DNA of 64,000 nucleotides from an uncultured Candidatus Saccharibacteria bacterium (GTDB lineage Bacteria; Patescibacteriota; Minisyncoccia; Phycocordibacterales; UBA1006), in NCBI GenBank assembly GCA_964415895.1, contig CAYQCC010000005.1:875-64874 (forward strand). The letters run 5' to 3'. Each line of letters starts with the position of its first letter. Positions within the stretch are counted from its first letter, which is position 1. The notes beneath the pieces were generated by a model. It was not told where the DNA came from, did not search any database, and saw only the letters and a list, made by a program, of their open reading frames with translations. The position numbers were made by a program, and so were the translations under genes. Below are positions 4,220 through 58,525 of the stretch, piece after piece.

Positions 4220-4465
4220 ATGATTATGAAACAAGAAGGATCAATTTTTTTTGGGGAGAAAGGGTCAGGAAATAAGGTCATTGAGAATGTGGAGCCAACT
4301 CACGCATACGAGGAAACTCATCTTGGTCAGGATTCGCGCGACTTACCTGAGACTGACATCCTAAGAGCTCGGGATTCTCTGGTAAACAAAAATTGGGAAG
4401 AAGAGCAACTGAGAAAAAGAGAAGCAGATATGAAAAAAGCATTCGAATTTGACGAAGCAGCTTAA
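4220..4465 (+). CDS. Small acidic hypothetical protein
   Basis: 81 aa ORF followed immediately by a strong terminator. Confidence 0.45.
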   Translation: MIMKQEGSIFFGEKGSGNKVIENVEPTHAYEETHLGQDSRDLPETDILRARDSLVNKNWEEEQLRKREADMKKAFEFDEAA

Positions 4466-4469
4466 ACTA

Positions 4470-4495
4470 AAAAACACCTGACGGTGTTTTTTAGT
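4470..4495. terminator. Bidirectional rho-independent terminator (AAAAACACC-tgac-GGTGTTTTTT)
   Basis: Hairpin flanked by an A tract and a T tract. Confidence 0.7.
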
Positions 4496-4512
4496 TTATA
4501 ATTATTTTTTAT

Positions 4513-4878
4513 GTTGTCATACCGGACTAGATCCGGTATCCAGTGCATTATTATATTCCAGATAAGTCTTTCCAGTCTGGGTTATCTTTTTCAATCAATT
4601 CGAGCTTCCATAACCGAGGCCATTTTTTAAGCAATTTCTCTCGAGAAATTGCAGATTCAATATCATGACAATGCTCATAGTATACCAGTTTAGATACGTC
4701 ATATTTCGAAGTAAAACTTTTTTCAAAATGCTTAGCTTTATGTTCTTGGATTCTTTTCTCTAAATTGCTGGTAATACCAATATAAATCGTTCCATTTTTA
4801 TTACTAGCGAGTATGTACACATAATAGATTTTATTTTCCATATATCCTGGATGCCGGATCGAGTCCGGCATGACAGCA
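4513..4878 (-). mobile_element. Compact GIY-YIG element bounded by 28-nt hairpin inverted repeats (TGTCATaCCGGACTAGATCCGGtATCCAG ... CTGGATgCCGGATCGAGTCCGGcATGACA). Copy 1
   Basis: The terminal repeats are reverse complements of each other, and the a/t versus g/c differences are compensatory within the hairpin. The same architecture occurs at 57595-57972. Confidence 0.5.
4551..4841 (-). CDS. GIY-YIG nuclease superfamily protein (COG2827/UPF0213-like, URI-domain endonuclease)
   Basis: YYVYILASNKNGTIYIGITSNLEKRIQEHK... is a GIY-YIG motif. An alternative upstream ATG at 4871 lies inside the right terminal repeat. Confidence 0.8.
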   Translation of the reverse strand: MENKIYYVYILASNKNGTIYIGITSNLEKRIQEHKAKHFEKSFTSKYDVSKLVYYEHCHDIESAISREKLLKKWPRLWKLELIEKDNPDWKDLSGI

Positions 4879-34224: not shown

Positions 34225-36144
34225 TTATTTAACTGAAGTATATGGAGTTTGGAATCCTGACATAGGAGTCAAGTTCTGAACTGTTGCACCTGTTGTAAGA
34301 GCCGCATCTGTGAAGAACTTAAGATCGTTCAACTGAACTCGGTAACTTGCAACTGCAGAAGCCCCAGTTACTTCAATTTTAACGTTGAATGTCTGAGTAG
34401 CCCCTGAATCAATTCGCCATGATGTTCCGTTTGAAGGAGCAGCACTTGAAACTGTAGCAACAACTGTAGCTCCACCAATTGTAGTAGCCTGAGTTGAAGG
34501 AGTTGAAGAGTTATTGAATGTAAATGACAACTCATTTGTTCCTGAGATAGCTCCAGCTGCAGCAGCTTGAACTGTTTGTCCAACATACAATGTATCGTCA
34601 AATGCCTTAACTGTTACAGGAATCATGTAAGTAGCCTTTTGGTTGCCTGCAGCACTGTAAGTTTCAGGTGAGAATGATGTAGATACATTACCCATAGTAA
34701 CAAGAGCACCTGTAGACAAGAATGTCATGTTTTCACCGACAACTGATCCAGATACGTTTGAAACTGTATCACGGTTGATGTTATCCAATTCAACAGTCAT
34801 TGTTGAAGAGTTAACAGAAGCTGATGCTTTGTCTCCGTTATCGAAGTCTGTAGTAGTAACTCCAGTGTTTTCAATATCGTTGATGTCAGCTCGTACTTCG
34901 AACTTAGCAGTTGCGTTTGCAGCAATTGAGTAGTTCAACTTAGAAATGTTTCCAAATGTTACAGTTTGAGTTGAAACACCTGTTGGGATTGATTCTGTTG
35001 AAAGAAGTGATCCGTTAGCGTACAACTTAACAACTTTAACGATAGCTTCTGGGTTAGGAGCAACTCCGTCCGCACCACCGTTTGTTGTTGTAATAACAAC
35101 TGGTACTTTCTGAACAACCATTCCAGCGTTCTCAGCTTTAGCATCGAAAGCAAGAAGTAATTGATCAGGAGTATCAGAAGTGTTTGAAGCCTGAACTGTC
35201 TGAGCTACAGGGTTTGAAGATGAAGTGTTAACTTTAAACTTCTGGTCTGAAGAAACTCCACCAGCTTTTTGGAAGTCAATTGTTGACTGTCCTAGTACTG
35301 ATCCGTAGTCTCGGTATCGTCCGTTAGCTGAAACAGCTGAAACATAGTTTGATGTTCCTGAAACTGTTGTACCAACGTTGATCTTCCAAGCTTCGTTAGC
35401 AGCATCAGTTGAATCCATAGTTGGAGTTCCTGATACAGCGATCAATACTTGTCCTCGCATGTTTTGCTTAACAACACCATTCATTCCTGTGAATCGGTAT
35501 GTGTAAACATCACCTGAGTCTGAAGAGAAGTTAGAAACTGACTTTCGTCCGATTTCTTTTCCATCCAAGAATACAGTAATGTCAGAAGCGTATCGAGTGA
35601 TCTTTAGGCTTCCTGTTCCTGTGTTCTGTAGAGCAACTGATAGACTATCGATTTTTTGGTCAGCGTCTTTAGCGATAACTTCAAAACCGTAAACTACTTT
35701 GTCTTTATCTCCTTCCATTACCTTTGTACTGTTGTAAGCTCCAAGCTTAACATCGTTTGAAAGGTATCCTTCTGTTCCACTGATAACTGTACCATTGTCG
35801 ATAACAGTTGATCCTGAACATGCAGCCAATTGAGCAGCAGTTACAGGTCCGATGATACCGTCAACTTTAATAGCTTTTGAAGCTTGGAAAGTCATGAATA
35901 CTCCTTTTGTTAGAGGACCGAACTTTCCGTCAATTACTAGGTTTGAACCTGCTACACAAGAGTTAAGAGCCATTTGAGCAGCTTTAACATTTGCGTTCTG
36001 TGAAACTTTAGCTCCGTATCCAGAACCTACTTTTAGGTATCCAGATGTAGAAGTGTAGATTTCAGTTGACATAACTGCACTTGCTGATCCCGCTAGAGCG
36101 AAGAATGCAATTGCTGCAACTGTTGAAATCATTATTTTTTTCAT
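34225..36144 (-). CDS. Surface protein with an N-terminal peptidoglycan-binding domain (PGBD-like) and a long Thr/Ser/Val-rich beta-repeat region
   Basis: Start placed at MKKIMISTVAAIAFFALAGSASA. ...AAQMALN...IDGKFGPLTKGVF...VDGIIGPVTAAQLAA fits a PG_binding_1 fold. Confidence 0.6.
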   Translation of the reverse strand: MKKIMISTVAAIAFFALAGSASAVMSTEIYTSTSGYLKVGSGYGAKVSQNANVKAAQMALNSCVAGSNLVIDGKFGPLTKGVFMTFQASKAIKVDGIIGPVTAAQLAACSGSTVIDNGTVISGTEGYLSNDVKLGAYNSTKVMEGDKDKVVYGFEVIAKDADQKIDSLSVALQNTGTGSLKITRYASDITVFLDGKEIGRKSVSNFSSDSGDVYTYRFTGMNGVVKQNMRGQVLIAVSGTPTMDSTDAANEAWKINVGTTVSGTSNYVSAVSANGRYRDYGSVLGQSTIDFQKAGGVSSDQKFKVNTSSSNPVAQTVQASNTSDTPDQLLLAFDAKAENAGMVVQKVPVVITTTNGGADGVAPNPEAIVKVVKLYANGSLLSTESIPTGVSTQTVTFGNISKLNYSIAANATAKFEVRADINDIENTGVTTTDFDNGDKASASVNSSTMTVELDNINRDTVSNVSGSVVGENMTFLSTGALVTMGNVSTSFSPETYSAAGNQKATYMIPVTVKAFDDTLYVGQTVQAAAAGAISGTNELSFTFNNSSTPSTQATTIGGATVVATVSSAAPSNGTSWRIDSGATQTFNVKIEVTGASAVASYRVQLNDLKFFTDAALTTGATVQNLTPMSGFQTPYTSVK

Positions 36145-50305: not shown

Positions 50306-53300
50306 TTACAATTTAGGAGTTGGGCGATATGGCGTGTATTCAACTTCCGTTGTCTTAGTCACCATAGGCGCAACAGGCGCTGTAGGAACCATTTCTGGTG
50401 CATACGGAGCCATTGGTCCTTTATCTGTTGGATAGTAATGATGATGTTCCTCGCGTCCACGCATAGTGTAACGAATGATCAAAATCACTAGAATCAATAG
50501 TAGGATAATGAACAACCATCCAGCTAATGTTCCTGGTAGGAAATCCAATCCAAAGATTGAAGCTCCAAGAACATTTTGCGTTGATAGATACGTATCAGAA
50601 TCGTATGCGATTGCATTTTCCTGTGCTTTGTTTTCAGGGTTTTCAAATGCGATGATTGCTCGTGCTGTAATTGGATCATTATCTTTGAATGAATTTCCTT
50701 TTACGTGTGCACGAACTGTCATGTCGTCTTTTTCAAGAGCTCGCAATTCACGAATGTTTACGTAAATTGTGTTTGCTTTTCGATCGATCTGACCACGGTC
50801 TGCTCCGATAATCTGCAAGCCTTCTGGGATTGCAATTTCCAAAACCAAATCATCAAGATCTGTCTTTGTAATATTTTCCCATGTAATATCGTAGATTAAT
50901 TCATCTCCACGCACGATTGTGTCTCGTCCGTTATCGATTGTTAATCGGATATATCGTGCACCACCACCAATATTAGTAGCAGTTGTGATATTACGAATAA
51001 TGGTTGTTGTTCCACCATTATTTACAACAGGTGGGTTGTATACAGTTGTATAAGGCAATGTCGTAAATGACAATTGTGATCCATACACTGTATTTCCACA
51101 AGCCTGAGCAACTGCCTGGTAATAATAGGTTGTTCCTGCAGCAAGTCCAGTAATAGACTGAGAGATTGAGCCTGAACCACTTCTATAGATAGATGAAGTT
51201 GTAGATCCATATGCACCGTTTCGTCCATATTGGAAATACGTCTGAGCTGAGGAACAGCTTCCGATATTCAAATATCCATCAAGTGTTGCAGAATCTTGCC
51301 CTCGGTAAAAGATTGGTAATGTCTGAACAGAAGCACTCTGATTATTGTTGTAGTTGTAATTCTGAGTTACAAGGAATGAAAGTTCCTGACCACACTGTGT
51401 GTAACTATTATTAGCTGCACATGCGCGGTAGTAATACGTTCCAGGAATCAGGTTATACAATGAAACATTGAATGATAGAGAACTGTTGCTTGAAGTATCA
51501 CTTGAAATGTTTCGAGCACTTTGTCCACCTAATCGGTATTCAAAATATGTTCGAGTTGATCCATATGTGTTTCCATTGTATCGTCCTCGCAAGATAACAC
51601 TTCCACTATCCTGGTTAATCCAAGAATAGTCTTCTGTGTATACGTTTAGGTTTGATTGCTGAGTGTCGTAAGGTGCTTCAGAGTCATCGTCATAACCACT
51701 ACATCCTTGATCGTTTGGATAGTCGATACGTCCGTCTCCGTCGTTATCACGTCCATCACTACATTCATGTGTTTGGTTAACTGTGTTAACACCAACATAT
51801 TCTGTATCAGTTTGTGGGTTTGAAGGATTTGAACTCTTCCAAGCCTTTATTTCATATGTTCGTCCTGTGTAAAGAGGTCCGAATGGTTTAGAGTCATCTA
51901 CGGCGTAGTTAACGCCATCGATAGTCACAACGTCACATCCTGTTGTATTCCATGACAATGTTGTGTATCCACCAGCGTTTACGTTTGAAGGTGATGCTGT
52001 GAAATTATTAATCACACACTGAGTTACAGTGTTAAATGGTGATTCAGTTGCGCCCGTGTAACTTGTACATGCAGGGTCATTTGGATAGTCTGTAAATCCA
52101 TCACCGTCGTTGTCGATACCGTCGTTACATTGTGGTGCAACTACTTGGTTCACTCCAACATATCGGTTTTGAGTTTGAATATTAGAAGGGTTTGAACTCT
52201 TCCAAGCTTTCAGTTCGTATGTTCGTCCTGTGTAAAGAGGTCCGAAAGTTCGAGTAGCGTTTGCAGGATAGACAACTCCATCAATTGTAAGCTGGTCACA
52301 GTTTGATGTACTCCATGATAAAGATACATATCCACCAGAGTTTACGTTTGTAGGGTTGGCTGTAAAGCTGTTGATCACACACTGTGCAACAGTGTTAAAA
52401 GGAAATTCTGAATTACCATTTGCGTTAGCACATGCAGGGTCATCTGGATAGTCTGTAAATCCATCACCGTCGTTGTCGATACCATCGCTACACTGATGAG
52501 TGATAGGTCGTTCAATACGGAATGTTAATGTACTTCCACATGTTGTTCCATATGAGTTTCGGGCACATGCACGGTATTCATGAGTTCCAGATGAAAGATT
52601 TGAAATATACTTACTGAAAGAAAAGTTCCCTGTTGTTGAAGAATTTCCACAATCTTCAGCAGTGGTTTGGTAACCACTATTGTTGATGTTTCGCCATTCA
52701 AAATAAGTACATGTAGCAGCGCCGTTAGGGCTTACTGATCCATTAAGGGTTGCAAATCCATCTCCTTCTGAAAATGGTAGGTATGAACCTGTAGAAACTG
52801 TAGGTTTTGAACCAGTTTGAACTGGAGTAGTGCTCACTTGGAAACCAAGCACAACAGCACCTTGTGCACATAATGGGTTCGTTGCACATGTGTTCATTCC
52901 TCGAACAAGTCCGATATTCAATCCTCCTGATGTGAAGATATCTTCTTCGTTTGCCATACGAACAGGGTTGTTTCCTCGATCATAACTTACACTAAGAGAT
53001 CCAGGAATAAATGTGAGGGTTTGAGAAGAAGAAAGTGAGATAGAGGTTGAGCTTGTGTTTGAAGCACCACCACCTGAAACAGAACCATTCAATGTGAATG
53101 ATTGAGAGGCAGATGTTCCTGGTCGATTAAGCTTGATGATAGTGTTCGTTGAGTCTGCAGTTCCATTGTTATGGAAATACACAACCACAGCTACCTTGTC
53201 ACCTGCAGATGCAGAAGATGACGGTGTATATGACGGAGCGCCATACACTTTACTTGCGACCATAGAGTTGCCTGTAAGTCCGTTGATAGGACCATATGAC

Positions 53301-54799: not shown

Positions 54800-55138
54800 A
54801 TAACTGATTTTTTATTTTTTAAAATATTTGAAATGAATGATTATCAAAACTTCGAGAAAGTCCTGCAAAACCTTGATAATCACTCATTTCTTCAATCAAT
54901 TATATGAATTTAACCTTTACAAAGATCATATGCCTAAAATAGTTATATTTCAGGGCATTTGTTGGCAGTATAGCATATTAGCATATATTTGTCAACCTCT
55001 GCATTATGTGGCATTTTGGGTGAATCGGGGTGCATTTTCCCCTCCCTTATGTAGGAGAGGGCTAGGATTAGGTAGTTCTTTTTAAATACCTCCTCCGGAT
55101 TTCAGCCACCTTATGCTACGTAGGAGAAGGAAAATACA

Positions 55139-55168
55139 TGGATACCAGATCAAGTCCGGTATGACAAC
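55139..55168. repeat. Solo copy of the GIY-YIG-element terminal hairpin repeat (GGATACCAGATCAAGTCCGGTATGACAACC)
   Basis: 26 of 28 match to the 4513-4543 repeat after reverse complement. No GIY-YIG ORF nearby. Confidence 0.5.
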
Positions 55169-57594: not shown

Positions 57595-57972
57595 ACTGTC
57601 ATTCCCGCGAAGGCGGGAATCCATTAGGGCTCTACGAAAACGAAAGATCTTTCCATTCGGGATTTCTTTCTTGAATTAATCTAATTTTCCATAATCGATT
57701 CCATTTCTTTAATTTCTTCTCATATTTAATAGCAGCTTCTATACTATTCGTCATTTCATACTAAACCAATAAGTGTAATCCGTATTTATATGTAAATCCT
57801 TTATTGATTCCTTGTTTGTGTTCCACAACTCTTCGTTCAAGATTATTAGTTACCCCGACATAAAGTGTTCCATATTGTTCATTAGTCATAATATAAACAA
57901 AATACATGACATTAATTATATCAGAGATTATTTTACTGATCATGGATTCCCGCCTTCGCGGGAATGACAACA
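57595..57972 (-). mobile_element. Compact GIY-YIG element, copy 2, bounded by a perfect 28-nt inverted repeat (TGTCATTCCCGCGAAGGCGGGAATCCAT)
   Basis: Same terminal architecture as 4513-4878: TGTCAT, a 5-bp GC hairpin, then ATCCA. The hairpin sequence differs from copy 1 but remains self-complementary. Confidence 0.5.
57650..57952 (-). pseudogene. GIY-YIG nuclease gene disrupted by a frameshift
   Basis: N-terminus MISKIISDIINVMYFVYIMTNEQYGTLYVGVTNNLERRVVEHK ends prematurely. The conserved C-terminal ...KKLKKWNRLWKIRLIQERNPEW is readable in another frame of 57650-57760. Confidence 0.6.
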
Positions 57973-58525
57973 GAATTGAAAAACCTTTCCCGAAGGAAAG
58001 GTTTTTCAATTCTGTGCTTAATTGGTTGCAAGGCAAGCCTCATAAGCATTCAAACACAGAAATCTCAAAGACATCTTTTCTGCCCACGAGGGAGCTGAAA
58101 TTGAAGAAAGGAGAAAGGAGAAATCCAGAAGTCGTCCGTTCAAGCAGACGCACCAGACATTCCTACCCGCAAACCCCAGGAAGACCGCGAGATCCCGATC
58201 CCTTTGAGATTTCTATGTTCAAAACTATTATGTAGTTTTATGATTGAAGCATATCATACTAATTATAATATGTCAAGTGCTTCACACTTATCTAACTTTT
58301 TAATTACATTGGTTTGCAATTAAAAATCCAGCAAGACTTAGACTATAACGCGGTTATGAAAATTGCGCAAGCACAAAATATGTGGTTTTTCACCAAGTTA
58401 TCCACAGGCTTTTTCCACATGCTAAATGAGCAATATACCTTTATTTATAAGGATATCTTCCTTATTTTCATGTTTTAAATCTGTATTACTGAAAAAAGAG
58501 ACTTGTATGATATAATGGATTTTAT

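Follow-up and report, generated by a model that had tools for sequence, protein, structure and literature searches.

The window analysed here is a low-GC (38%), 64-kb stretch of contig CAYQCC010000005.1 from an uncultured Candidatus Saccharibacteria bacterium (GenBank assembly GCA_964415895.1, positions 875 to 64,874 of the forward strand), and it contains two ~370-bp repeat-gene-repeat units, at 4512-4878 (copy 1) and 57597-57969 (copy 2). Each consists of an open reading frame (ORF) for a small GIY-YIG nuclease bracketed by inverted hairpin repeats, and a solo repeat of the same kind lies between the two (Table 1). This is the arrangement that the initial annotation had described from the letters alone, and the sequence matches that description. 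The arms of the copy 1 inverted repeat are 32 nt long and 88% complementary to each other. Counted from the family-consistent start MENK, the copy 1 ORF codes for 96 amino acids followed by a stop, while an alternative ATG further upstream, at 4869-4871 within the right repeat, would give 106. The start and stop codons of this gene are no more than 5-7 nt away from the repeats. On the start side, the stretch ATCCAGGATATATG is common to the closest relatives, and the AGGA within it, which overlaps the upstream repeat at the 3' end of the latter, could serve as a ribosome-binding site. Given that the gene is co-oriented with a transketolase gene located upstream and has no room for a promoter of its own, it is likely to be transcribed by read-through.

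The copy 1 protein comprises a single domain, matched by PF01541 over residues 6-77, with no extra DNA-binding domain, and its catalytic residues (Y9, Y20, R30, H34, E68, and N87) are all invariant in a 24-sequence family alignment. A small GIY-YIG (URI) domain with a basic helix on its C-terminal side would be a likeness to the COG2827/UPF0213 (E. coli YhbQ) and Slx1 branch of these nucleases, and the "COG2827-type" label of the initial annotation is provisional. A sequence search of the PDB with this protein recovered no relative of solved structure, and searches of PADLOC and PHROGs returned weak GIY-YIG motif matches only, indicating that it does not belong to a known defence or phage family.

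The flanking repeats are statistically distinct features of the window. The string TGTCAT-N12-22-ATCCA occurs six times against an expectation of 0.67; five of these occurrences are hairpins and one, at 34723, is a chance match. All five hairpins read TGTC-AT...AT-CCA, with GTC before the palindrome and C after it. A covariance model, R1, built from 56 repeats of other genomes only, retrieved from the window exactly these five (E = 1.8e-10 to 2.2e-6), the next match having E = 0.04. It scores them at 30-44 bits and their reverse strands at merely 8-11 bits, and hence the motif is oriented. In DNA folding every window repeat forms an 8-bp stem (AT plus 6 bp), in place of the 5-bp hairpin originally supposed, with loops of 5 nt in the copy 1 repeats and the solo repeat and of 4 nt in the copy 2 repeats; in the solo repeat one stem pair is weakened to G.T.

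These stems also show the hallmarks of selection for pairing. The a/t versus g/c difference between the copy 1 arms, which had been put down to compensation in the hairpin, is indeed a true compensatory change, located at the third stem pair; across the family this pair is occupied by UA (13), CG (8), AU (2), and GC (1). In the class of repeats with 5-nt loops, both-sided changes are seen in 6 of the 8 stem pairs. Pairing in this class drops from 99% to 7-53% once the partner column is slid, a contrast to be read with the input sequences having been pre-selected for pairing, and hence it is the pair-type counts and a test on flank-chosen sites, not the pairing percentage, that carry the covariation argument. 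In the latter test, sites chosen by their unpaired flanks alone have a perfect 6-bp inner stem in 93 of 112 cases, versus 0.09% after shuffling. The evidence thus supports selection acting on the stem-loop, as the initial annotation had argued.

Both the gene and the repeats lead to a published system (Chenal et al., Nat Commun 2025;16:2388, PMC11893778). In that work, the Neisseria repeat dRS3 was recognized as part of a longer oriented motif, NTS (consensus CGTCATTCCCGCGMAVGCGGGAATCYRG), and NTS-like Ssn-related motifs (SRMs) were found to flank homologs of NMV_0044 (ssnA) across phyla. With homology defined by E < 1e-10, at least one SRM lay nearby in 71% of the homologs and SRMs lay on both sides in 42%. 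The ssnA product is a 94-residue single-domain GIY-YIG protein (cd10448), and the Ssn and Slx1 families are separate within the GIY-YIG superfamily. SsnA binds the NTS only as single-stranded DNA (ssDNA) and on one strand only, that reading (C/T)GTC-palindrome-C, with a Kd of 4.5 nM; it is inactive on double-stranded DNA (dsDNA) and on RNA, and does not bind the latter. The cut falls in the variable flank upstream of the repeat, and the oligonucleotide lengths place it 3 nt 5' of the 28-nt motif. Mutagenesis showed the three nucleotides before the palindrome to be key to cutting and the C just after it to be key to binding. The same behavior was found for homologs of three further species, each with its own repeat, and in N. 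meningitidis transformation by DNA carrying the NTS is reduced by the enzyme (Chenal et al., 2025).

The repeats themselves had been catalogued earlier as CGTC-tagged repetitive extragenic palindromes (REPs), which include Neisseria dRS3 and Rickettsia RPE-4 and RPE-6 and are characterized by 8-9-bp stems starting with AT, loops of 4 or 5 nt, a CCA tail, a tag that is often TGTC, and the formation of dimers in inverted orientation (Di Nocera et al., BMC Genomics 2013;14:522, PMC3733652). The window repeats share the AT-starting stem, the loop sizes, the CCA tail, the TGTC tag, and the inverted dimers. Their 4-nt-loop class corresponds to CGTC REP family 1 and their 5-nt-loop class to families 2-4. 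Di Nocera et al. concluded that these REPs have no dedicated transposase, and that study named no dedicated enzyme for them, whereas the window repeats bracket a GIY-YIG gene, as in the loci of Chenal et al.

Several lines of evidence place the window units in this family. BLASTP aligns the copy 1 protein with the SsnA ortholog of N. gonorrhoeae at 57% identity over 86 amino acids (E=8e-35), and a tblastn search of the whole plasmid collection PLSDB likewise finds the N. gonorrhoeae ortholog (E=1e-12). Moreover, the window units and the Neisseria system share the ~95-residue single-domain GIY-YIG protein, the repeat-gene-repeat layout, and the critical GTC and post-palindrome C; the repeats of both are built as (C/T)GTC, a palindrome starting with AT, and then C-C-A/G. 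The copy 2 repeats differ from the NTS consensus solely at their first and last bases. The published SRM search pattern, HGTCWYN(0-2)YYVSBRHN(0-5)WNVSBRGN(0-2)RNCYNB (Chenal et al., 2025), matches the copy 2 pair and nothing else in the window, where 0.08 matches would be expected by chance. We therefore propose, with a probability of roughly 0.87, that both window units are Ssn-family cassettes (GIY-YIG, CDD cd10448) flanked by their cognate SRMs, i.e., CGTC/TGTC-tagged REPs.

The N. gonorrhoeae ortholog used in these comparisons (NZ_CP119142.1, our locus L091) has 94 amino acids, with Y6, Y17, and E64 in the published numbering, residues that have their counterparts in the catalytic set of copy 1. 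That numbering fits this record only if translation starts four codons upstream, at an ATT; the region upstream of Val5 has no ATG, GTG, or TTG in frame, and the nearby ATG is out of frame. As a caveat for plasmid statistics, several "plasmids" in PLSDB (NZ_CP119142.1, NZ_CP119140.1, CP090106.1, and NZ_AP026896.1) are multi-megabase sequences of chromosome-like size (2.17 Mb in N. gonorrhoeae, 3.7 Mb in S. meliloti, 4.9 Mb in A. caviae), and we take these records to be whole chromosomes.

Table 1. Features of the two cassettes and the solo repeat in the window. Gene and repeat names follow the assignment proposed in the text; bit scores and E-values of repeats are from covariance model R1; fold energies (DNA) are in kcal/mol.
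Feature	Coordinates	Strand	Structure or sequence	Score	Fold energy
SRM, stop-codon side of ssn copy 1	4512-4543	+	8-bp stem	35.6 bits, E=4.5e-08	-7.3
Left SRM core of copy 1	4515-4542		TGTC-ATACCGGA-CTAGA-TCCGGTAT-CCA; 5-nt loop		
ssn copy 1	4551-4841	-	intact single-domain GIY-YIG nuclease gene	PF01541 E=1.5e-18	
SRM, start-codon side of ssn copy 1	4847-4878	-		34.2 bits, E=1.2e-07	-10.5
Right SRM core of copy 1	4848-4875	-	TGTC-ATGCCGGA-CTCGA-TCCGGCAT-CCA; holds the alternative ATG		
Solo SRM	55139-55166	-	TGTCATACCGGACTTGATCTGGTATCCA; 5-nt-loop type, like copy 1	30.0 bits, E=2.2e-06	-4.1
SRM, stop-codon side of ssn copy 2	57597-57624	+	TGTCATTCCCGCGAAGGCGGGAATCCAT; 4-nt loop, close to the Neisseria NTS consensus	43.7 bits, E=1.8e-10; published SRM pattern matched	-8.9
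ssn copy 2, pseudogene	57632-57907	-		Pfam GIY-YIG E=8.9e-15 (stop masked)	
SRM, start-codon side of ssn copy 2	57942-57969	-	perfect reverse complement of 57597-57624		-8.9

Certain observations weigh against this assignment, set the window apart from the Neisseria system, or speak against carrying the Neisseria biology over to it. The copy 1 repeat pair, with its 5-nt CTNGA loop, falls outside the published SRM pattern, yet is recognized by R1, and the solo repeat is likewise outside that pattern. With only five SRMs in 64 kb versus the hundreds of repeats of the Neisseria system, there is no sign of the massive amplification known from Neisseria and Rickettsia, and one of the two window genes is a pseudogene. 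The nearest repeats face inward at the Neisseria ssnA locus and outward in the window, and thus an outward-cutting geometry is not universal. The role in transformation is established only in N. meningitidis, Patescibacteria are not mentioned in the published work (Chenal et al., 2025), and the binding and cutting of ssDNA that we attribute to copy 1 would be carried over from homologs of other lineages. At the N. gonorrhoeae locus (L091), NTS repeats are found at 1361-1388, 1777-1804, 1849-1876, and 1932-1958, and the GTCAT ends of the nearest two face the gene.

A broader survey places the window cassettes within a widely distributed family. A protein search yielded 1476 homologs of 92-112 amino acids, many of them on very short contigs, and a locus survey in which one genome per species was scanned gave 80 homologous loci (52-67% identity) from Patescibacteria, Proteobacteria, Bacteroidota, Planctomycetota, Chloroflexota, Nitrospirota, and other phyla. 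In most of these loci a motif-free search returned TGTCAT-hairpin-ATCCAG as the best inverted repeat around the gene, and a motif detector found at least one such repeat adjoining the gene in 70 of the 80. The exact layout of the window, with TGTCAT facing outward on both sides, was seen in 35 of the 80. The repeats are therefore present in many genomes and are not confined to the two window loci; confinement to these loci was the outcome that the initial annotation had named as refuting its proposal. Two hairpin classes recur, namely TCCCGCG-AAA-GCGGGA with a 4-nt loop and NNNNNA-CTTGA-TNNNNN with a 5-nt loop, and it is common for the repeats upstream and downstream of one gene to belong to different classes. 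At 71% amino acid identity, the closest relatives of copy 1 sit between adk and map, not beside transketolase, and their downstream repeat (e.g., at L098) is almost identical to both the copy 1 left repeat and the solo repeat of the window.

The second window cassette illustrates a different state of the system. The inverted-repeat arms of copy 2 are complementary at 28 of 28 positions, and its ORF carries an in-frame TAG at 57761-57763 in place of a near-invariant Tyr, while a Tyr replaces the nearly invariant Arg of the REK motif. These changes mark copy 2 as a pseudogene, in which, owing to the in-frame TAG, the set of catalytic residues is incomplete. It appears to be a decaying gene, the 4-nt-loop SRMs of which are still perfect. 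Read through the copy 2 stop, the two proteins are 53% identical, and a direct comparison of the two copies detected no DNA similarity, which favors two independent acquisitions over a duplication within the genome. The two cassettes would thus represent separate lineages. Copy 1 is intact and can probably act on its own SRMs, which are of the 5-nt-loop type, as well as on the solo SRM at 55139.

Some further features lie close to these elements. Each cassette stands beside a long perfect hairpin with a T-run that looks like a bidirectional intrinsic terminator (n=2 cases): the hairpin at 4463-4498 stops 13 nt short of the left end of copy 1, and that at 57970-58015 directly adjoins the right end of copy 2. 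Two copies of another small hairpin motif, CCCTCCCTTATGTAGGAGAGGG (55036-55061) and CCACCTTATGCTACGTAGGAGAAGG (55100-55130), are found 64-69 nt apart and immediately upstream of the solo SRM, and may constitute another short repeat family. A tandem duplication at 51822-52492 (period 363 nt, 1.8 copies, 77% match) is unrelated to the ssn cassettes.

Comparison of orthologous sites shows that the gene and its repeats come and go as a whole. At the adk-map site, the intergenic gap measures 392-447 nt when filled and 27-35 nt, without any hairpin, when empty; the empty sites are from related lineages, with Adk 81-91% and Map 73-78% identical. At the fnrL site of Sphingobium megaplasmids, which are 87-97% identical at the DNA level, four kinds of allele are present: the filled repeat-ssn-repeat unit; a single symmetric palindrome, CGTCAC-CCCGGG-TCAAG-CCCGGG-GTGACG, in two strains; an unrelated REP-like palindrome; and a minimal 38-nt spacer. 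The symmetric palindrome equals the outer halves of both repeats joined at an 8-nt direct repeat, ACCCCGGG, and lacks the post-palindrome C that SsnA binding needs. A 50-kb stretch of the filled Sphingobium plasmid holds five repeats, all of them canonical (two flanking the gene, one solo, and two in a gene-less doublet with a 25-nt spacer), and no symmetric forms; on this account the symmetric palindrome is best read as a deletion footprint and not as a common landing pad. For the Rhizobium CIAT894 and Planktothrix plasmids that were compared, no orthologous empty site was found.

What looks to be new with respect to Chenal et al. (2025) is this finding, made in two lineages, that orthologous sites either have or lack the entire unit, together with an empty allele bearing a hybrid palindrome. 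Relatives keeping the gene at the same synteny but devoid of repeats, which would have made the palindromes mere local features, are not what these sites show: gene and repeats are gained or lost together. Two copies from one metagenome-assembled genome (MAG) are ~80% identical across the unit and 100% identical in their repeats, and their similarity starts 2 nt outside TGTCAT. Neither the exact-protein look-up nor the MAG pair or the window pair revealed near-identical copies located in different contexts. The protein P0099, looked up by exact match, has a single context in all 10 places shown of the 16 contigs carrying it; these places are the same locus in one population and hence are not evidence of transposition. 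In 61 units we found neither a target-site duplication nor a conserved target motif.

Independent short-read contigs of this organism (Logan, SRR26856460) end precisely where the outer SRMs of the two cassettes lie (4847-4878 and about 57940), as is expected if the repeats are multi-copy in that sample. Exact-protein look-ups of the window neighbors tktC and ruvB gave only short contigs from that organism, ending exactly at the repeats, and are uninformative on empty sites.

Other loci display more elaborate arrangements. At two of them (L051 and L061), two ssn genes lie 0.4-0.9 kb apart in the same orientation as tandem cassettes. On the Planktothrix agardhii plasmid NZ_LR882964.1 (L092), the ssn homolog is located between an MmeI-type restriction-modification gene and DISARM drmA, and is flanked (at 1190-1460 and 1830-2050) by arrays of longer units resembling miniature inverted-repeat transposable elements (MITEs), which start with TGTCATTCTGAG, end with CATTCAGGATGACA, and include tandem partial copies. 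The Shinella plasmid NZ_OZ000531.1 (L185, about 980-1650) has an SRM doublet with a ~80-nt spacer on each side of the gene. The two spacers look like mutual reverse complements, and related Shinella replicons lack the ~590-bp composite; their identity of only ~80% does not allow the junctions to be resolved. At loci L095 and L102, the stretch from adk to the intact upstream SRM carries two decayed partial copies of the 5' part of the repeat (TTGTTTGTCATTTGAAGAG and GTTGTTTGTTATTCTAGGAT), suggesting repeated events or slippage at the upstream end.

By homology with SsnA, and given that the TGTCAT of both copy 1 repeats faces outward, the copy 1 nuclease is predicted to cut between 4511 and 4512 on the plus strand and between 4878 and 4879 on the minus strand. 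Beyond TGTCAT the inverted repeat continues for another 3 nt, the same as the published cut distance, and the predicted cuts fall at the exact ends of the inverted repeat. With less certainty, a resident unit would nick SRM hairpins whenever these are exposed as ssDNA, for instance in incoming transforming DNA, as in Neisseria. Equally tentatively, the unit may be of selfish origin, comparable to an insertion sequence (IS), may spread horizontally, and may be lost by recombination between its own inverted hairpins.

A stronger version of this last idea holds that the unit is an autonomous IS-like transposon with the GIY-YIG nuclease as its sole enzyme, which would cut at the hairpin ends, the repeat-gene-repeat unit moving to new sites and the gene-less doublets being MITE-like derivatives. 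This overlaps with the assignment to the Ssn family and adds to it self-mobility in the present day. The filled and empty orthologous sites at adk-map and, with 89-97% DNA identity between these alleles, at fnrL speak for it, as do the different context of the closest relatives of copy 1, the scatter of homologs at 55-66% identity over many phyla, the coexistence of gene-less outward-facing doublets and solos with the cassette, the coincidence of the predicted cut sites with the inverted-repeat ends, and the breaking of short-read contigs exactly at the repeats. It is countered by the lack of target-site duplications or a conserved target motif in the 61 units and by the failure to see near-identical copies in different contexts, the MAG pair being only ~80% identical. 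Furthermore, the inverted repeats leave one cleavable site per strand, and single-strand excision of the IS200 type is therefore impossible as such. To our knowledge, GIY-YIG enzymes are hydrolytic, form no covalent intermediate, and have no known strand-transfer chemistry. Chenal et al. (2025), who noted the IS-like architecture, gave mobility and domestication only as a hypothesis. On balance, we consider present-day self-mobility possible though rather doubtful. It is with the same reserve that we entertain the repeat-ssn-repeat unit as a mobile element of a new mechanistic class, in which a hydrolytic ssDNA nickase would cooperate with the replication or repair machinery of the host. The limits of the unit would be set by nicks placed on opposite strands directly beyond its outward-facing hairpins; its loss, through recombination between the two inverted hairpins, would leave a symmetric TGTCAY-stem-loop-stem-RTGACA palindrome, as at Sphingobium fnrL; and the gene-less doublets and solo repeats would be non-autonomous derivatives. 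The suggestion of a mobile-element family in the initial annotation is thus no more than a possible reading: units are present or absent as a whole in other genomes, but neither target-site duplications nor near-identical copies elsewhere accompany them.

The remaining alternatives deny the nuclease or the DNA hairpin its role. The hairpins might be ordinary REPs or REPINs mobilized by an HUH RAYT encoded elsewhere in the genome, with the GIY-YIG gene as a mere neighbor or a host processing factor; indeed, the same Neisseria 21-mer, ATTCCCGCGCAGGCGGGAATC, has been assigned in the literature to the REPINs of a Group-2 RAYT. We regard this as improbable in view of the flanking of ssn by repeats in 70 of 80 loci across phyla, and in 71% of the homologs of Chenal et al. 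(2025), of the direct binding of the repeat by SsnA at nanomolar Kd, and of the gain and loss of gene and repeats as one unit; moreover, among the species that Di Nocera et al. (2013) examined, CGTC repeats were found to flank no transposase gene, whether RAYT or other. Still less probable is a classical free-standing homing endonuclease of the I-TevI type acting on a dsDNA target in cognate genes that lack it: weak GIY-YIG matches to phage homing-endonuclease families exist, and the only NCBIfam match of the copy 1 protein is to TIGR01453, but at a score of 27 against a cut-off of 56. The protein has only 96 residues and no DNA-binding domain, the gene is not in an intron, intein, or phage context, and the characterized members of the family do not cut dsDNA (Chenal et al., 2025). 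Finally, palindromes at both ends of a gene, one relative of which (the solo repeat) passes a loose terminator scan, might be local transcription terminators or regulatory RNA hairpins without a function at the DNA level. The four gene-flanking repeats, however, lack a T-run, and the scan does not call them as terminators; separate terminator-like hairpins that pass the same scan adjoin the cassettes at 4463-4498 and 57971-58014. The unpaired TGTC and CCA flanks are conserved across phyla and strand-specific (30-44 versus 8-11 bits), an Rfam scan of the whole window recovered only rRNA and tRNAs with no match at the repeats, and RNA is not bound by SsnA (Chenal et al., 2025). We accordingly rate this the least credible of the explanations considered, with hardly any weight left to it.

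The analogy with REP/RAYT systems made in the initial annotation is nevertheless apt, and Chenal et al. (2025) likewise likened the Ssn system to IS200/IS605 and REP/RAYT. Like the REP/REPIN/RAYT elements (REPtrons) and IS200/IS605, the Ssn cassettes have a small nuclease gene between inverted hairpin repeats, dispersed solos and gene-less doublets, recognition of the hairpin in ssDNA with a cut beside it, and no target-site duplication. They differ in that the enzyme is a hydrolytic GIY-YIG nuclease and not an HUH/Y1 transposase with a covalent intermediate, and their tag is CGTC/TGTC, not GTAG. As the encoded protein is a GIY-YIG nuclease and not a Y1 tyrosine transposase, this is a resemblance of layout to REP/RAYT, not membership. 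The view that the arrangement was undescribed has to be given up: the repeats were catalogued in 2013 (PMC3733652), and the repeat-gene-repeat layout and its biochemistry were published in 2025 (PMC11893778), and hence a claim of discovery does not stand. The window holds a new example of the known Ssn/SRM (CGTC-REP) system, not a new kind of mobile element.

Several consequences follow for the family. The published SRM search pattern misses the class with the 5-nt CTTGA-type loop, and counts of SRMs obtained with it are therefore underestimates. The two natural nuclease-hairpin pairs, one with a 4-nt and the other with a 5-nt loop, might provide orthogonal specificities for the ssDNA-cutting tools proposed by Chenal et al. 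(2025). Deciding on the mobility of CGTC REPs and Ssn cassettes requires evidence such as the filled, empty, and footprint alleles; if the unit were truly a mobile element, Ssn would be the "missing transposase" of the CGTC REP superfamily. Finally, the window extends the Ssn/SRM cassettes to a small-genome, Patescibacteria-like lineage. Such small-genome bacteria are considered dependent on the uptake of DNA by way of type IV pili, and transformation in Neisseria is modulated by an ssDNA-specific nuclease of this family.

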